Shown: positions 11,006 to 62,256 of the stretch, piece after piece
How positions within the stretch are numbered: position 1 is the first letter of the stretch
Layout of the letters: each line of letters begins with the position of its first letter
Sequence record: NC_027349.1
Strand: one strand, 5' to 3'
DNA length: 64,000 bases
DNA from: Escherichia phage HY01
Program-made: the position numbers and the translations under genes
The notes under the pieces: generated by a model
What the model was told of the DNA's origin: nothing
Seen by the model: only the letters and a program-made list of their open reading frames with translations
Database searches by the model: none

Positions 11006-11596
11006 ATGCTCTTTACATTTTTTGATCCGATTGAATATGCGGCCAAAACGGTGAATAAAAACGCGCCGACTATTCCTATGACAGATATTTTTAGAAACTA
11101 TAAAGACTATTTCAAACGTGCTCTTGCGGGATACCGCTTACGTACTTATTATATTAAAGGTTCACCACGCCCGGAAGAATTAGCAAATGCTATATATGGA
11201 AATCCGCAGTTGTATTGGGTTTTATTGATGTGTAATGATAATTATGATCCGTATTATGGATGGATTACTTCGCAAGAAGCTGCTTATCAAGCATCTATAC
11301 AAAAATATAAAAACGTAGGTGGAGACCAAATAGTATATCATGTGAATGAGAACGGTGAAAAATTTTATAATTTAATATCATATGATGATAATCCATATGT
11401 TTGGTATGACAAAGGTGATAAAGCTAGAAAATATCCTCAATATGAAGGAGCACTTGCTGCGGTCGATACGTATGAAGCTGCTGTTCTTGAAAATGAAAAA
11501 CTTCGTCAAATAAAAATAATAGCAAAATCAGACATCAATTCATTTATGAACGACCTTATACGTATAATGGAGAAATCTTATGGAAATGATAAGTAA
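11006..11596 (+). CDS. 53: gp53 baseplate wedge protein (196 aa)
   Basis: length and synteny match T4. Confidence 0.9.
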   Translation: MLFTFFDPIEYAAKTVNKNAPTIPMTDIFRNYKDYFKRALAGYRLRTYYIKGSPRPEELANAIYGNPQLYWVLLMCNDNYDPYYGWITSQEAAYQASIQKYKNVGGDQIVYHVNENGEKFYNLISYDDNPYVWYDKGDKARKYPQYEGALAAVDTYEAAVLENEKLRQIKIIAKSDINSFMNDLIRIMEKSYGNDK

Positions 11597-13307
11597 TAAC
11601 CTTAATTGGTTTGTTGGTGTTGTTGAAGATAGAATGGACCCATTAAAATTAGGTCGTGTTCGTGTTCGTGTGGTTGGTCTGCATCCACCTCAAAGAGCAC
11701 AAGGCGACGTAATGGGTATTCCAACTGATAAATTACCATGGATGTCAGTTATTCAACCTATAACTTCTGCAGCAATGTCTGGAATTGGAGGCTCCGTTAC
11801 TGGTCCGGTAGAAGGAACTAGAGTTTATGGTCATTTTTTGGACAAATGGAAAACTAACGGAATTGTCCTTGGCACGTATGGTGGAATAGTTCGCGAAAAG
11901 CCTAATAGACTTGAAGGATTTTCTGACCCGACTGGACAGTATCCTAGACGTCTAGGAAATGATACTAACGTATTAAACCAAGGTGGAGAAGTAGGATATG
12001 ATTCGTCTTCTAATATTATTCAAGATAGTAATCTAGACACTGCGATAAATCCTGATGATAGACCGCTATCAGAGATTCCAACTGATGATAATCCAAATAT
12101 GTCAATGGCTGAAATGCTTCGCCGTGATGAAGGATTAAGACTAAAAGTTTATTGGGATACTGAAGGATATCCGACAATTGGCATTGGTCATCTTATCATG
12201 AAGCAGCCAGTTCGTGATATGACTCAAATTAATAAAGTTTTATCAAAACAAGTTGGTCGTGAAATTACCGGAAATCCAGGTTCTATTACAATGGAAGAAG
12301 CGGTAACTTTATTTGAACGCGATTTGGCTGATATGCAACGTGACATTAAATCACATTCTAAAGTTGGCCCAGTTTGGCAAGCAGTTAATCGTTCTCGTCA
12401 AATGGCATTAGAAAATATGGCATTTCAGATGGGTGTTGGCGGTGTAGCTAAATTTAACACAATGTTAACTGCTATGTTAGCCGGAGATTGGGAAAAGGCA
12501 TATAAAGCTGGTCGTGATTCATTGTGGTATCAACAAACAAAAGGCCGTGCATCCCGTGTTACCATGATTATTCTTACCGGGAATTTGGAATCATATGGTA
12601 TTGAAGTCAAAACACCGGCTAGGTCTTTGTCAGCAATGGCTGCTACTGTAGCAAAGTCTTCTGATCCAGCTGATCCTCCTATTCCGAATGATTCGAGAAT
12701 TTTATTTAAAGAACCTGTTTCTTCATATAAAGGTGAATATCCGTATGTTCACACAATGGAAACTGAAAGCGGTCATATTCAGGAATTTGATGATACCCCT
12801 GGGCAAGAACGATACAGATTAGTTCATCCGACTGGAACATATGAGGAAGTATCGCCTTCAGGAAGAAGAACAAGAAAAACTGTTGATAATTTGTATGATA
12901 TAACAAATGCTGATGGTAATTTTTTGGTAGCTGGCGATAAAAAGACTAACGTCGGTGGATCAGAAATTTATTACAACATGGATAATCGTCTTCACCAAAT
13001 AGATGGAAGCAATACAATATTTGTACGTGGCGATGAAACTAAGACGGTTGAAGGTAATGGAACTATCCTAGTCAAAGGTAATGTTACTATTGTAGTTGAA
13101 GGTAATGCTGACATTACAGTTAAAGGAGATGCTACCACTTTAGTTGAAGGAAATCAGACTAATACAGTAAATGGAAATCTTTCTTGGAAAGTTGCTGGGA
13201 CAGTTGATTGGGACGTTGGTGGTGATTGGACAGAAAAAATGGCATCTATGAGTTCTATTTCATCTGGTCAATACACAATTGATGGATCGAGGATTGACAT
13301 TGGCTAA
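11580..13307 (+). CDS. 5: gp5 baseplate hub / cell-puncturing protein with lysozyme domain (575 aa)
   Basis: internal lysozyme motif DEGLRLKVYWDTEGYPTIGIGHL; C-terminal VxGxxxxx beta-helix repeats; length 575 as in T4. Confidence 0.95.
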   Translation: MEMISNNLNWFVGVVEDRMDPLKLGRVRVRVVGLHPPQRAQGDVMGIPTDKLPWMSVIQPITSAAMSGIGGSVTGPVEGTRVYGHFLDKWKTNGIVLGTYGGIVREKPNRLEGFSDPTGQYPRRLGNDTNVLNQGGEVGYDSSSNIIQDSNLDTAINPDDRPLSEIPTDDNPNMSMAEMLRRDEGLRLKVYWDTEGYPTIGIGHLIMKQPVRDMTQINKVLSKQVGREITGNPGSITMEEAVTLFERDLADMQRDIKSHSKVGPVWQAVNRSRQMALENMAFQMGVGGVAKFNTMLTAMLAGDWEKAYKAGRDSLWYQQTKGRASRVTMIILTGNLESYGIEVKTPARSLSAMAATVAKSSDPADPPIPNDSRILFKEPVSSYKGEYPYVHTMETESGHIQEFDDTPGQERYRLVHPTGTYEEVSPSGRRTRKTVDNLYDITNADGNFLVAGDKKTNVGGSEIYYNMDNRLHQIDGSNTIFVRGDETKTVEGNGTILVKGNVTIVVEGNADITVKGDATTLVEGNQTNTVNGNLSWKVAGTVDWDVGGDWTEKMASMSSISSGQYTIDGSRIDIG

Positions 13308-35811: not shown

Positions 35812-36059
35812 TGGAAGGTTTAATTGAAGCTATTAAATCAAACGACCTCGTAGCCGCTCGTAAATTATTTGCTGAAGCCATGGCTGCAAGAACGATTGAT
35901 TTAATTAAAGAAGAAAAAATCGCTATCGCTCGTAATTTCTTAATTGAAGGTGAAGAACCTGAAGACGAGGATGAAGATGATGACGAAGATGGTGATGATA
36001 AAGACGACAAAAAAGACAAAGACTCTGACGAAGATGACGAAGACGAGGATGATGAATAA
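35811..36059 (+). CDS. 67: gp67 prohead core protein (82 aa, acidic D/E-rich C-terminus)
   Basis: size, composition and position. Confidence 0.85.
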
Positions 36060-37152: not shown

Positions 37153-37962
37153 ATGCTTAAAGAACAACTGATTGCCGAAGCGCAGAAAATTGATGCTTCC
37201 GTTGCTCTTGATAGTATTTTCGAATCAGTTAATATTTCTCCGGAAGCAAAAGAAACTTTCGGCACTGTATTCGAAGCTACCGTCAAGCAGCACGCCGTTA
37301 AATTAGCTGAATCTCATATCGCTAAAATTGCTGAAAAAGCAGAAGAAGAAGTAGAAAAAAATAAAGAAGAAGCCGAAGAAAAAGCTGAGAAGAAAATCGC
37401 TGAGCAAGCTTCTAAATTCATCGACCATCTTGCGAAAGAATGGCTCGCTGAAAATAAATTAGCAGTTGATAAAGGCATCAAAGCCGAACTGTTTGAATCC
37501 ATGCTTGGTGGATTAAAAGAGCTCTTTGTTGAACACAACGTTGTTGTTCCAGAAGAATCAGTTGATGTTGTAGCTGAAATGGAAGAAGAGCTGCAAGAAC
37601 ATAAAGAAGAATCAGCTCGTCTGTTCGAAGAACTCAATAAGCGTGACGCATATATCAATTATGTGCAGCGTGAAGTGGCATTGAGCGAAAGTACTAAAGA
37701 TCTGACTGAGTCTCAAAAAGAAAAAGTCTCTGCTCTGGTCGAAGGTATGGATTATTCAGATGAATTCTCAAGTAAATTGAGTGCCATCGTAGAAATGGTG
37801 AAGAAGTCTAATAAAGATGAAAGCACTATTACTGAGGGTATAAATACTCCTGATACTGAAGCAGCCGGACTGAATTTCGTCACTGAAGCTGTAGAAGATA
37901 AAGCTGCACCTGGTGCAGAAGATATTGTAAGTGTATATGCGAAAGTCGCATCTCGTTTCTAA
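37153..37962 (+). CDS. 22: gp22 prohead scaffold core protein (269 aa)
   Basis: length, acidic coiled-coil composition, synteny. Confidence 0.9.
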   Translation: MLKEQLIAEAQKIDASVALDSIFESVNISPEAKETFGTVFEATVKQHAVKLAESHIAKIAEKAEEEVEKNKEEAEEKAEKKIAEQASKFIDHLAKEWLAENKLAVDKGIKAELFESMLGGLKELFVEHNVVVPEESVDVVAEMEEELQEHKEESARLFEELNKRDAYINYVQREVALSESTKDLTESQKEKVSALVEGMDYSDEFSSKLSAIVEMVKKSNKDESTITEGINTPDTEAAGLNFVTEAVEDKAAPGAEDIVSVYAKVASRF

Positions 37963-59022: not shown

Positions 59023-59209
59023 AATAATCTAGTGGTAAGAGAGTACGGTATATTTCAAACTTTGGCCCTTTTTCATAGGCATCAAATGTTTCTGTAAATT
59101 TATTATAAGCATACGCATCTACAAATTCGAGAATGACTTGCGATACCGAAGTAGAAACATCTCCACCTTCTTTTTGAGCTATAACAATTGTTTCTAAGTA
59201 AGCTTTCAT
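59021..59209 (-). CDS. hypothetical protein (62 aa), translationally coupled to ligase
   Basis: ATGA overlap with the gene 30 stop. Confidence 0.55.
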   Translation of the reverse strand: MKAYLETIVIAQKEGGDVSTSVSQVILEFVDAYAYNKFTETFDAYEKGPKFEIYRTLLPLDY

Positions 59210-60666
59210 AGACCAGTTACCTCATGAAAATCACCAAATACATCCTCGAATGTATTAGCTTTAGTTTTATCTTCACGTAAACGAATCACAATCGGAAGAA
59301 ATAATTTAACGTAATCAGTGCGGCCATCAGATTTTAACCAACCATTGCATTCGCACTCTAGAATTTTTCCAATATAATAATTTTGGTTTTCCATAATGCG
59401 AGTACGGTCAAGTTCATGCGATTTTACACCGGCTTTATCTTTTAAACCTGAACCAGCATTTACTTTAATTTTTCCACACTCTGATTCAAGAATAAATCCA
59501 CCTGCTTTAGTAGGGTCTTTACGGTGAGGATAAATTCCTACAATTTTTAAATCAACATCAATTACTTCTTTAAATTTATAAAGATTTTTTGAACGAGCAT
59601 TTTCCCACAATCCATCGGTATTTTTGAGAATAATACCTTCAAGACCTTGGTCAATATACTTTTTATAAATTACCTTAGCTTCATCTAGGTTATTTACTAC
59701 TTGGTTTTCAATTAAAATTACTTTATCATATCCTGATGTCATTTGTTCTAGTTTAGAAAACCGTACATCATATTTTAAACGAAACGCCGGAAGACCGTAT
59801 ATTTCTACTAACGGGACATAATCCCAGACCTGAAACTTCATACATTGAGCTTCTTTTTCTGAAATAGTTCCCTTTAAAGATTTATTGGCAATTCCATTAG
59901 AAGTAGTACGAGATTCCGCTACTTCGGCAAACTCTTTAGCTTTACTGATTTCAGGAGCATCAAAAAGAAAATCTAGGCCTTCTGGTTCCTTTTTAACTTG
60001 CTCATGGTATACCAATTCGCCATCAATTAACACACCTTCTGGATGAATCTGGCGGGCTTCTGCGGTCATTTTGATTAATTCTTCTTTAAGAAGATCTAAT
60101 CCTAGATATTCATTACCAGCTCGTGATAAAAGACGAACATCATCTAATTCATCACCTCTAACTTCAGCAAAACACCGGGCTCCATCTGCTTTTAACTGTG
60201 CAAAGGCTGGAAATTTGATATTCTTACTAATGCCTTTTTCATCATAAGAACTTGCCAGCATTTGAGGTTGTTCAGGAATTAAACCTGGCCAAACTTTATT
60301 TGCAATAGATACCGAAGCACCGCATTCGAGGTCTCGCATCATAACTCGACGCAAAACTTCAACATCATCCTTTTTACCATCAGTGATATATCCAGTTAAT
60401 TCCTCAATTGCAGCATTTCCAGTCAATTTCCGAGTAGCTAACGTGAATTCAATGAAGTCAAGCATATCGGTAATAGTCAGCATTCCAAAACTCTGAGTAG
60501 CAATACCAGGTTTAGGCCATTTCTTGATATAATACTGTAACCCACGAGAATAAGTCAGACGATATACTCGTTTAAGCAATTCGTTATCTTTATTCCTTTC
60601 AAGAATTGCTTGCTTCTGCTTAGTTGATCCAATAGATGCTATTTCATTCAGAATTTTAAGAATCAT
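59206..60666 (-). CDS. 30: ATP-dependent DNA ligase (gp30; 486 aa)
   Basis: adenylation motif KADGAR; sequence recalled as T4 DNA ligase. Confidence 0.95.
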   Translation of the reverse strand: MILKILNEIASIGSTKQKQAILERNKDNELLKRVYRLTYSRGLQYYIKKWPKPGIATQSFGMLTITDMLDFIEFTLATRKLTGNAAIEELTGYITDGKKDDVEVLRRVMMRDLECGASVSIANKVWPGLIPEQPQMLASSYDEKGISKNIKFPAFAQLKADGARCFAEVRGDELDDVRLLSRAGNEYLGLDLLKEELIKMTAEARQIHPEGVLIDGELVYHEQVKKEPEGLDFLFDAPEISKAKEFAEVAESRTTSNGIANKSLKGTISEKEAQCMKFQVWDYVPLVEIYGLPAFRLKYDVRFSKLEQMTSGYDKVILIENQVVNNLDEAKVIYKKYIDQGLEGIILKNTDGLWENARSKNLYKFKEVIDVDLKIVGIYPHRKDPTKAGGFILESECGKIKVNAGSGLKDKAGVKSHELDRTRIMENQNYYIGKILECECNGWLKSDGRTDYVKLFLPIVIRLREDKTKANTFEDVFGDFHEVTGL

Positions 60667-60932
60667 TGTTCATCCTTCAGAGTTTGATTTACATTTCTAT
60701 TATAAATCAATTCATCATTAAGCTCAGGCAAAGACCTGTGATATGTAGTTCTAACTTTATTTCCTTGCATCCAATGCTTGATATAAATGAAACCTTGCTC
60801 TACACATTTTTTAAAAATTCGTTCGTCTTTTTGAGCTCGGAATTCTGGATTGCATCTAAAAAATTGATTTACGTGACCGTAATCACGTGTAGTATTACCT
60901 TCATTTTCATAAATAGTGTGAACGACAAACAT
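60663..60932 (-). CDS. hypothetical protein (89 aa; 30.1 position)
   Basis: ORF, coupled overlaps. Confidence 0.6.
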   Translation of the reverse strand: MFVVHTIYENEGNTTRDYGHVNQFFRCNPEFRAQKDERIFKKCVEQGFIYIKHWMQGNKVRTTYHRSLPELNDELIYNRNVNQTLKDEQ

Positions 60933-61795
60933 TAGAATGCTCCTTGGAAAATATTATCACCACTAGTAAATCTATTAAAATACCCTGCATCACCAGGCTT
61001 AGTATAACTCCACGTATGGAATGGATTCATATGATACGGGTGTGTATAATATGGATTATATGGATGTGTATAATATGGATTATACGGATTAAATCCAGGA
61101 GTTCTCCAGGTAGTGTTCCAAGGAAAAGAATCGGTTTTAACCATCTTCTCAATTACATCTTTTATAGCTTTTTCACTATCAAAACTTTCTTTATTTTCCT
61201 TCGGTGAAAAAAGCTTATTTTCTACATCATTCCATGTATAAACTCGCTGAGCGGTTTTTGGAATATTATCACGCTCTCCTCGAGCCATCCAATAAACAGG
61301 AACATTTAATATTTCACTCGCGTGGTCGCAGTGGTGAGCGAGATCGTCAATATAACAAATTACGTTATATTTCTCTTTTGCCTTTTTGAACAACTCTTCT
61401 TTTGAAGAATCATGACCACACATCATTACTTCTGAGAAGGCACCAGGAAAAAGAGCATTCAAATTAAATTGACGATTTAATAGAGCATCAATAGAATCAC
61501 CCAATGCTGTAACAGCTACAAAATTATAATCTTCTTTTAATTTGTTAATTACACACAGGGCATCTTTATATGGAGACAAGTAACGAATAAAATCTGATCG
61601 ATTGTATTTTTCAATTAACTTGACACCAAGTTCTTCATCACAATTAAAGAGTTTACCTGGAGAAATAAATTTCTCATCTTGGATCATTTTTAAAATATGT
61701 TCTAACGGAAGATTATATTTCTGAGCAAAATAAGGAAGACCTGATTGCCAGCTTAAACATACTCCATCAATATCAGTTAAAATAGTAGGCTTCAT
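60932..61795 (-). CDS. HAD-superfamily-like hydrolase with Tyr/Pro-rich repetitive C-terminal tail (287 aa; 30.2 position)
   Basis: N-terminal DIDGV (HAD motif I DxDG) and later DD motif; C-terminus NPYNPYYTHPYNPYYTHPYHMNPFHTW. Confidence 0.6.
   Translation of the reverse strand: MKPTILTDIDGVCLSWQSGLPYFAQKYNLPLEHILKMIQDEKFISPGKLFNCDEELGVKLIEKYNRSDFIRYLSPYKDALCVINKLKEDYNFVAVTALGDSIDALLNRQFNLNALFPGAFSEVMMCGHDSSKEELFKKAKEKYNVICYIDDLAHHCDHASEILNVPVYWMARGERDNIPKTAQRVYTWNDVENKLFSPKENKESFDSEKAIKDVIEKMVKTDSFPWNTTWRTPGFNPYNPYYTHPYNPYYTHPYHMNPFHTWSYTKPGDAGYFNRFTSGDNIFQGAF
61037..61084 (-). repeat. tandem 24-bp duplication inside the HAD-like gene (plus strand GTGTGTATAATATGGATTATA x2)
   Basis: two adjacent near-identical 24-nt units encoding repeated NPYYTHPY. 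Confidence 0.8.
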
Positions 61796-62256
61796 AGAGA
61801 GTCTCTTAATAGGTTTAACACATCAATAAATTCAGCTTCAGTTAGTATTGTATCATCTTTTGTTAGACCACTAGCCATGCTGTGCTTCAAAACTTTTCCT
61901 TTCGAGGCTTGTAATGCATCGCGAAAGCCCCTGTTTTGGAACGCTGCTTCAAAATATGCATTTGTGTATAGCTCTTTCCACGCCGGGGAGTATCTTGAAA
62001 ACGGAACTCCAAGCCAGAACAATGTGCCACGGTCCTGAGCTCTTGCATAAGCTCGTCCAGCTTTTTGTGCGTCCAACCCGGACATCCCAAATATACGTCT
62101 TTGCTGTTCAACATTTTTCACCTTACATCCTTGGAGGAATCCTTCGAGACCTCCAAATTGGATACCATCCATAACGAAAGGCCATTGGGCAAAATTGCTT
62201 AATGCACATGATGGCCATCTAAAATTGCTTCTAATCTCTAACTCAGACATTTTCAA
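61792..62256 (-). CDS. NADAR (YbiA/DUF1768)-like protein (154 aa; 30.3 position)
   Basis: LSNFAQWP...DG...EGFLQGCK resembles the YbiA signature FSNFAAWP...DG...EHYFQAQK; C-terminal LNLLRDSL resembles YbiA LMELREQL (from memory, no search). Confidence 0.5.
   Translation of the reverse strand: MKMSELEIRSNFRWPSCALSNFAQWPFVMDGIQFGGLEGFLQGCKVKNVEQQRRIFGMSGLDAQKAGRAYARAQDRGTLFWLGVPFSRYSPAWKELYTNAYFEAAFQNRGFRDALQASKGKVLKHSMASGLTKDDTILTEAEFIDVLNLLRDSL

Follow-up and report, generated by a model that had tools for sequence, protein, structure and literature searches.

An in-frame 24-nt tandem repeat in the predicted disordered tail of a T4 gp30.2 orthologue and its copy number among Tequatrovirus relatives

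Near the 3' end of a minus-strand gene of Escherichia phage HY01, two almost identical 24-nt units stand side by side and encode the same eight residues twice. Does this duplication mark a place where the protein changes length among related phages, and does the repeated peptide have a role of its own? We examined these questions in a 64-kb stretch of the phage genome (64,000 nucleotides of sequence record NC_027349.1, here called the window) and in the relatives of the gene that carries the repeat.

The repeat and the gene that carries it

Tandem Repeats Finder reports an array at positions 61034-61089 with a period of 24 nt, 2.3 copies and 90% matches, and its score of 98 is the highest among the 44 rows returned for the window. 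A nested period of 9 nt was reported at 61049-61091. In a separate period-24 scan of the array, 23 of 24 positions match; the observed score was 20, as compared with a maximum of 13 in simulations, and none of 200 simulated windows drawn from a second-order Markov null reached 20. This is the same array that an earlier note on this DNA had placed, in a slightly shifted register, at 61037-61084. Translated from the minus strand, it gives NPY, NPYYTHPY and NPYYTHPY in succession, residues 236-254 of 287:

61082-61090, minus strand: partial leading unit NPY (AAT CCG TAT), residues 236-238, which belongs to the nested 9-nt periodicity
61058-61081, minus strand: repeat copy 1, AAT CCA TAT TAT ACA CAT CCA TAT, encoding NPYYTHPY, residues 239-246
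61034-61057, minus strand: repeat copy 2, AAT CCA TAT TAT ACA CAC CCG TAT, encoding NPYYTHPY, residues 247-254

The two copies differ at 2 nt (CAT CCA versus CAC CCG). Both differences fall on third codon positions and are synonymous on the minus strand, so that the peptide repeat is perfect. With nearly identical units joined head to tail and a unit length that is a multiple of three, the array is an in-frame coding tandem repeat. The peptide quoted in the earlier note agrees with the translation of the open reading frame (60932-61795, minus strand, 287 aa), in which the protein around the array reads ...FNPYNPYYTHPYNPYYTHPYHMNPFHTW... The note had also described the repeat as a C-terminal tail: it does lie in the tail, but not at the extreme C-terminus, as 33 residues come after it. 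An antisense frame in the same phase (60944-61207, plus strand) was rejected as the coding frame, since the differences between the copies are non-synonymous there and synonymous in the minus frame; it is further disfavoured by the pN/pS of 0.03 in the minus-frame core.

The gene and its surroundings are arranged as follows:

60932-61795, minus strand: gene for the 287-aa T4 gp30.2 orthologue, a HAD fold with a C-terminal tail (open reading frame, PHROG 420, synteny)
60663-60932, minus strand: gene 30.1 (DUF3045), downstream (Pfam PF11243, E 5e-63)
61792-62256, minus strand: gene 30.3 (Phage_30_3), upstream (Pfam PF08010, E 1e-68)
59206-60666, minus strand: 486-aa open reading frame, downstream, in the position of the DNA ligase gene 30 in the annotation of relatives

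Beyond the 486-aa frame lies a 698-aa frame, which we take from the T4 map to be Alt. The stop codon of the repeat-bearing gene and the start codon of 30.1 overlap (TAATG), an arrangement that suggests that 30.1 is probably translationally coupled to it.

The gene is 100% identical to that of Escherichia phage PEC04 (KR233165.1) and shares 94-98% identity with hundreds of Tequatrovirus (T4-like) records; matches were found in 616 records, 497 of which span at least 80% of the gene. The protein matches PHROG 420, a family of unknown function, over residues 1-276 (E 2.4e-89). No match to the whole protein was found in Pfam and NCBIfam, the sole match in a PDB sequence search was spurious (E 1.5), and a literature search found no publication about gp30.2. 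The T4 record names the syntenic genes 30, 30.1, 30.2 and 30.3 and describes gp30.2 as a 'conserved hypothetical protein'. The synteny with T4 30.1/30.2/30.3 therefore identifies the window protein as the T4 gp30.2 orthologue, and the full-length profile match together with its place between 30.1 and 30.3 makes it a member of the T4 gp30.2 family (PHROG 420).

T4 gp30.2 itself (AAD42442.1, PHROG 420) likewise lies downstream of DNA ligase gene 30 and is flanked by 30.1 (DUF3045) and 30.3 (PF08010). Its first 229 residues are 97.8% identical to those of the window protein and its tail has the same layout (WRTPGFNPYNPY..., KPG..., GDNIFQGAF). In contrast to the window protein, it is 278 aa long, does not carry the 24-nt duplication, and has NPYNPYHPYQTHPFQTW as its variable segment.

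A HAD core followed by an accessory tail

Along the protein we distinguish a core, a linker with a helix, and a tail with a distinct end segment:

61211-61795, minus strand: HAD catalytic core with a helical cap, residues 1-195 (AlphaFold2, Foldseek, conserved residues)
61136-61210, minus strand: linker and amphipathic helix, residues 196-220, with the helix at 202-220 (AlphaFold2 secondary structure, pLDDT 63-85)
60935-61135, minus strand: predicted disordered tail rich in Tyr, Pro, Asn, Thr, Phe and His, residues 221-287 (pLDDT 38-58, composition, pN/pS)
60935-61000, minus strand: C-terminal segment KPGDAGYFNRFTSGDNIFQGAF, residues 266-287, a degenerate G(T)GIEYLxxQPT followed by GDNIFQGAF, with the site of an SG to SGSG change (tail alignment)

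As sequence searches of the families and of the PDB gave nothing usable, the fold was determined with AlphaFold2 and Foldseek. In the AlphaFold2 model, built with 92 homologues, residues 1-195 have pLDDT values of 92-98 and form a Rossmannoid core with a cap insertion, the fold of the HAD superfamily. Foldseek returned 103 PDB matches at E <= 0.001, and the best 50 of the 103 are nearly all HAD-superfamily proteins. The matches include B. subtilis YfnB (3i76, E 8e-8) and the mammalian cytosolic and mitochondrial 5'(3')-deoxyribonucleotidases 2jao, 2i7d, 4yih and 1q92 (rmsd 4.5-4.9 Å, target-normalised TM 0.62-0.66).

The residues expected of a HAD active site are also in place. D8, D10, K132, D150 and D151 are invariant in the alignment of 92 homologues, and T96 and G11 are each conserved in at least 90% of them. 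HAD motif I, DxDx(T/V) at the end of strand 1, is ILTDIDGV, with D8/D10 as its DxD, the nucleophile Asp and the second Asp two positions on; motifs II, III and IV correspond to T96, K132 and D150/D151 (YIDDL), the assignment of these columns following the order of the strands in the model. Invariant or nearly invariant catalytic residues on the matching fold (pLDDT above 90 over residues 1-195, Foldseek E of about 1e-7) give good support to the 'HAD-like' label that the earlier note had attached to this protein. From its conserved residues, the gp30.2 orthologue looks catalytically competent. To the known, uncharacterised T4 gp30.2 family (PHROG 420) the protein adds a new allele, and its HAD fold is bona fide.

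The likeness extends to the C1-cap HAD phosphatases as a group (cdN/mdN 2jao, 2i7d, 4yih, 1q92; YfnB 3i76), which share with gp30.2 the fold (Foldseek E 8e-8 to 1e-6, rmsd 4.5-6, target-normalised TM 0.6-0.7) and the conserved DxD, Thr, Lys and DD. They differ from it in that sequence identity is only 13-20% and none has a Tyr/Pro-rich C-terminal tail. The profile of the 5'(3')-deoxyribonucleotidase family (NT5C, Pfam PF06941) was not matched, nor was any Pfam family at E <= 0.1, and a profile of the 92 homologues searched against the PDB matched 2jao weakly (E 0.06). The resemblance to deoxyribonucleotidases is real at the structural level; membership of that family is not supported by the profiles. 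Some GenBank records nevertheless name this protein deoxyribonucleotidase.

The tail is of a different nature. Residues 221-287 have pLDDT values of 38-58 and show no secondary structure in the AlphaFold2 model, although these low values may partly stem from shallow, poorly alignable columns and not necessarily from true disorder. A second AlphaFold2 model, of the distant homologue P0036, gave a tail pLDDT of 41-56 and a longer helix (194-224). P, W, Y, F and H make up 48% of the last 60 residues, the most extreme composition among the tails of the family, in line with the aromatic and proline-rich low-complexity tail that the earlier note had described. Pooled pairwise pN/pS is 0.03 in the core, 0.28 in residues 196-229 and 0.33 in residues 230-287; by this measure the tail remains a coding sequence under some constraint, yet approximately 10-fold relaxed relative to the core. 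Predicted structure, composition and relaxed constraint together mark it as an intrinsically disordered low-complexity tail, an assignment that rests on a shallow tail alignment.

Tails of this kind are not found in the whole family. When the homologues, down to about 35% identity, were clustered at 90% identity, 38 of the 92 clusters were found to have no tail: these proteins end soon after the core and retain all catalytic residues, which makes the tail an accessory extension outside the catalytic fold. In one homologue, P0015, a core of this tail-less kind is fused to 30.1 (DUF3045). In the other 54 clusters the tails are 50-140 residues long, for the most part with a high content of Pro, Trp, Tyr and Phe.

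Many of the family tails end in a conserved G(T)GIEYLxxQPT motif, which is retained at about 50% core identity. T4 keeps the canonical form as GGIEYLYNRPT, whereas the window protein has the degenerate DAGYFNRFT, followed by GDNIFQGAF, which is conserved in Tequatrovirus. In the model of P0036, where the motif is canonical (GIEYLNRQPT), the only structure at the motif is a four-residue helix, which is not docked on the core, and a role of the C-terminal motif as an intramolecular cap or in autoinhibition was therefore dropped. A short linear motif that depends on a partner from outside would be expected to stay undocked in such a model. To see if such a tail is attached to other proteins, a profile of it (17 sequences, 53 positions) was searched against 1.84 billion representatives. 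All that it recovered was a fragment of the same protein, 70 aa long; this is a weak negative, as the search was underpowered and full-length family members were not recovered at E <= 0.001.

Copy number and tail turnover among relatives

To follow the repeat among relatives, the gene was compared in 14 other Tequatrovirus genomes, which were picked for differing matched lengths and then translated. Within the allele type to which the window belongs, the following states were seen:

D5505, 279 aa: one unit (the CAC CCG variant), identical to copy 2 of the window
PEC04, Shfl2 and many others, 287-289 aa: two units
BYEP01, 295 aa: three units (the CAT CCA variant, equal to copy 1 of the window, twice; then CAC CCG)
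RPN226, 290 aa: two units and an extra 9-nt AAT CCA TAT (NPY)

This series (one, two, three, and two plus NPY) has unit-exact boundaries and occurs in genes that are otherwise approximately 97% identical, so that close relatives show a VNTR-like polymorphism of copy number. Its frequency was estimated by a megablast census with the three-copy version as the query, in which 57 of the best 60 records belonged to the PEC04 allele type. Two copies are present in 54 of these 57 records, in every case with the same two synonymous differences, and the exceptions are D5505 (one copy), BYEP01 (three) and RPN226 (two plus NPY). The 54 two-copy records represent various hosts and several countries; among them are a few RefSeq/GenBank duplicates of one phage. 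An exact-pattern scan of the JGI metagenomes for the start of the array found one contig, with two copies and the same synonymous differences; a single contig cannot serve as an environmental census, and the same scan of IMG/VR gave no match.

The earlier note had proposed the repeat as a site of possible length variation, to be abandoned if copy number proved strictly invariant among relatives. Length does vary: three of the 57 records depart from two copies. As far as these genomes tell, the variation is real but rare, and since 54 of 57 records have exactly two copies, the site is not a hypermutable one. The two-copy state would seem to be old relative to the allele lineage and fairly stable, and not one position of a switch.

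The repeat lies within a wider segment of change. T4, T2, RB7, IME340, ESh30, teqhad, ADUt, ES21 and a48 all vary in the same segment, between the conserved WRTPGFNPY and KPG; compared with the window they show substitutions as well as indels that range from -33 to +9 nt. Every indel observed is a multiple of 3, protein lengths range from 274 to 295 aa, and the conserved C-terminus is kept in all alleles. A second micro-duplication, the 6-nt AGT GGT (SG to SGSG), was found nearer to the C-terminus in Shfl2, T2, ADUt and ES21. Across the Tequatrovirus alleles, amino-acid identity to the window is 96-99.6% in residues 1-229 and 58-95% in the last 58 residues. IME340 and BCPSen003 carry T4-type tails on cores with 99% amino-acid identity, and the DNA identity of the core is 95-97.5% irrespective of the type of tail. 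The allele type of the tail is thus uncoupled from the similarity of the core, which points to recombination around the segment and would fit frequent events of this kind.

How does this array compare with known kinds of repeats? It resembles the coding minisatellites (VNTRs) that slipped-strand mispairing or unequal crossing-over creates in disordered regions of proteins, in having a unit that is a multiple of 3 nt, 1-3 copies among close relatives, and a low-complexity, weakly constrained site; it differs from them in that the copies are very few and their number is apparently stable, with two copies in 54 of 57 records. With bacterial contingency loci it shares a variable-copy repeat within a coding region, but its units are of 24, 9 and 6 nt, the frame is never shifted and the gene is never off. 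A phase-variable contingency locus was rejected, since all changes in length are multiples of 3 and the conserved C-terminus is always kept. The same window contains another 24-nt, 8-residue periodicity in a T4-type protein, the C-terminal beta-helix repeats of gp5 (13051-13154). In gp5 the repeats (VxGxxxxx) have diverged and serve as structural elements of a folded triple-stranded beta-helix. They do not represent a recent, near-identical duplication within a disordered tail, and are unrelated in kind to the array described here.

Origin and possible roles of the repeat

We propose, as the likely explanation, that the NPYYTHPY unit was duplicated in frame by slippage or unequal exchange, and that the duplication is tolerated in the disordered gp30.2 tail of PEC04-type Tequatrovirus. 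The segment is built from nested short direct repeats: the 9-nt AAT CCA TAT (NPY), the 24-nt unit and, downstream, the 6-nt AGT GGT. Replication slippage, or unequal homologous exchange between such direct repeats, would occasionally gain or lose a unit, a mechanism to which the pattern of alleles points. Slippage of the Streisinger type is a classical mechanism, and T4-type phages are known from established T4 genetics to recombine intensely. The resulting variants would persist if the segment serves as a flexible spacer, or as a sticky linker, and its precise length is of little importance. Such a linker would join the catalytic core and the helix at 202-220 to the short C-terminal motif (GTGIEYLxxQPT; here DAGYFNRFT...GDNIFQGAF), which most plausibly would dock the enzyme onto a partner protein. 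The earlier note had suggested that the tail may mediate protein binding or aggregation; what the data show of the tail is predicted disorder, a constraint that is relaxed yet still present, and short motifs conserved in part. Under this explanation the repeat is an ordinary length polymorphism, an in-frame coding minisatellite in a disordered region, and no new kind of element.

An alternative, which we consider unlikely, is that the octapeptide is itself a binding motif (x-P-[YW]-Y-x-H-P-x) whose copy number tunes valency or avidity towards a partner in the host or the phage, so that the range of one to three copies would be adaptive, for example host-specific. In the tail alignment, NPYYTHPY is matched to KPWYEHPG, an element conserved in Klebsiella-type and other T4-like homologues, and the unit is perhaps a functional motif rather than a mere spacer. 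The perfect peptide repeat, in which both differences between the copies are synonymous, and the two copies kept by 54 records across many hosts and countries are consistent with such a role. Two synonymous differences are, however, too few to demonstrate selection, and the pN/pS of 0.33 gives no sign of positive selection. Moreover, T4, T2, RB and other alleles have no intact unit or have it freely altered (HLYHPYQTHPF, YTHSHQMHPF) on cores that are 96-99% identical, and many members of the family have no tail at all.

The same idea can be extended to the whole tail, as a variable-valency array of x-P-[YW]-Y-x-H-P-x motifs, with GIEYLxxQPT after them, that recruits the HAD phosphatase to a specific partner in the host or the phage. 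The rapid turnover of this array by indels and recombination among T4-like phages, including the series of one, two and three copies, would then be an adaptation to differing hosts or to a counter-measure of the host, and not neutral drift. We give this extended proposal even less credence than the binding motif itself.

It is quite improbable that the His/Tyr octarepeat is a metal-binding or self-associating module in which copy number alters metal loading, condensation or aggregation. The thought is suggested by analogy with the PHGGGWGQ repeats of the prion protein, which are likewise of 24 nt and 8 residues, and with N/Y-rich prion-like repeats: the unit has 8 residues with one His each, next to a flanking His, and may be comparable in this respect, while the region is rich in Tyr, Asn, Pro and His and predicted to be disordered. 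No similarity to known metal-binding repeats was found, the tail has no sequence matches in Pfam, NCBIfam or the PDB, and the positions of the His residues are not conserved in distant tails.

Slightly less probable still, and rejected after consideration, is a role at the level of DNA or RNA, in which the Tyr-Asn junctions (TAT AAT) would serve as the -10-like TATAAT of an internal promoter for 30.1 and 30. A candidate, TGGAGA-18-TATAAT, does lie on the minus strand at 61108-61079, with 10 of 12 matches and its end in the array. The region as a whole holds 12 promoter-like matches, as compared with 7.8 +/- 2.8 in shuffled sequences, which is not significant, and TATAAT is expected from Tyr-Asn codons in an AT-rich genome. 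The alleles of ESh30 and RB7 remove or alter the junctions, and the differences between the copies track the third positions of codons.

An assembly or sequencing artefact in a single genome is effectively refuted as the source of the duplication: nothing was found in favour of it, and 54 phage records and one metagenome contig carry the identical two copies with these same synonymous differences.

The preferred reading, a tolerated in-frame duplication in a disordered tail, gives the finding little weight when taken alone: it is a textbook slippage or unequal-exchange polymorphism in a disordered segment of a gene from a non-essential region. What it brings into view is the gp30.2 tail as the single hypervariable, recombining part of a protein that is otherwise 96-99% conserved, and this tail is usable as a fine-scale strain marker in Tequatrovirus. 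The intact set of HAD catalytic residues makes a phosphatase assay worthwhile, and the xPWYEHPG and GTGIEYLxxQPT motifs of the distant tails offer a concrete handle for the partner of this widely conserved HAD enzyme of T4-like phages.

Conserved and variable elements of the gp30.2 tail

The Tyr/Pro-rich C-terminal tail of the gp30.2 orthologue, a 287-aa HAD-fold protein, contains further features on the same strand as its gene:

60935-61000 (-), segment with a degenerate form of the C-terminal motif G(T)GIEYLxxQPT, from tail comparison with homologues P0027-P0053
60956-60967 region (-), site of an AGT GGT micro-duplication, duplicated in the T4-like phages Shfl2 (L013), T2 (L020), ADUt (L018) and ES21 (L017)
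61079-61108 (-), sigma-70-like consensus match TGGAGA-18-TATAAT, whose -10 hexamer is made up by the Tyr-Asn codons that open the repeat array

The motif G(T)GIEYLxxQPT is conserved at the C-terminus and common to gp30.2 homologues from distantly related T4-like phages (the tails of P0027-P0053), and in alleles of the PEC04/T2 type, PEC04 being the type of the window gene, it is degenerate and reads DAGYFNR[FLI]T. A second conserved element of these tails, xPWYEHPG, is located upstream of it. Both elements resemble short linear motifs for a partner.

The AGT GGT site represents a second micro-duplication in this tail, by which several relatives carry AGT GGT AGT GGT (SGSG in place of SG); the window allele has the single copy. 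As for the promoter-like match, the number of TATAAT hexamers rises by one with every repeat unit added to the array; the significance of the TGGAGA-18-TATAAT match at 61079-61108 (-) against shuffles was not reached.

Other coding repeats in the window

Repeats within or near other genes of the window were also recorded:

13051-13154 (+), 24-nt, 8-residue periodicity encoding VEGNGTILVKGNVTIVVEGNADITVKGDATTLVEGN, within ORF 11580-13307; Tandem Repeats Finder scores 69-72
35945-36056 (+), Asp/Glu-coding trinucleotide-type repeat (GAT/GAA/GAC), upstream of a gp21 protease-like ORF
37333-37394 (+), repeat of the same Asp/Glu-coding type (GAT/GAA/GAC), within a 269-aa scaffold-like ORF (37153-37962)

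The 575-aa ORF at 11580-13307 (+) is presumably the homologue of the gp5 baseplate hub/lysozyme, by its position and its sequence, and we take its 24-nt repeats to be the known beta-helix octapeptide repeats of gp5. These GAT/GAA/GAC repeats give rise to low-complexity acidic segments in proteins of the prohead core or scaffold.

Product names and a fusion with gp30.1

GenBank records disagree on the product of gp30.2 orthologues, naming it 'haloacid dehalogenase-like hydrolase', "5'-3' deoxyribonucleotidase", "5' nucleotidase deoxy pyrimidine cytosolic type" or 'putative phosphatase'. In some records the features under the match also include 'RNA repair pathway DNA polymerase beta' and 'prohead core protein', in a table that ties no name to one gene, and the teqhad record names the neighbouring gene 30.1 'putative baseplate tail tube cap'. 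Among the names for gp30.2, the HAD assignment is the sole one supported by the present analysis.

In the window, gp30.2 and gp30.1 adjoin with a TAATG overlap. The metagenome-derived homologue P0015 (302 aa) combines, in one ORF, a gp30.2 HAD core devoid of the tail and a DUF3045 (gp30.1) domain (PF11243 match at residues 230-295, E 8e-15). Alternatively, this ORF, whose source contig measures 1.4 kb, could reflect a frameshift or a gene-calling artefact. Read as a true fusion, P0015 hints that gp30.2 and gp30.1 are functionally linked.
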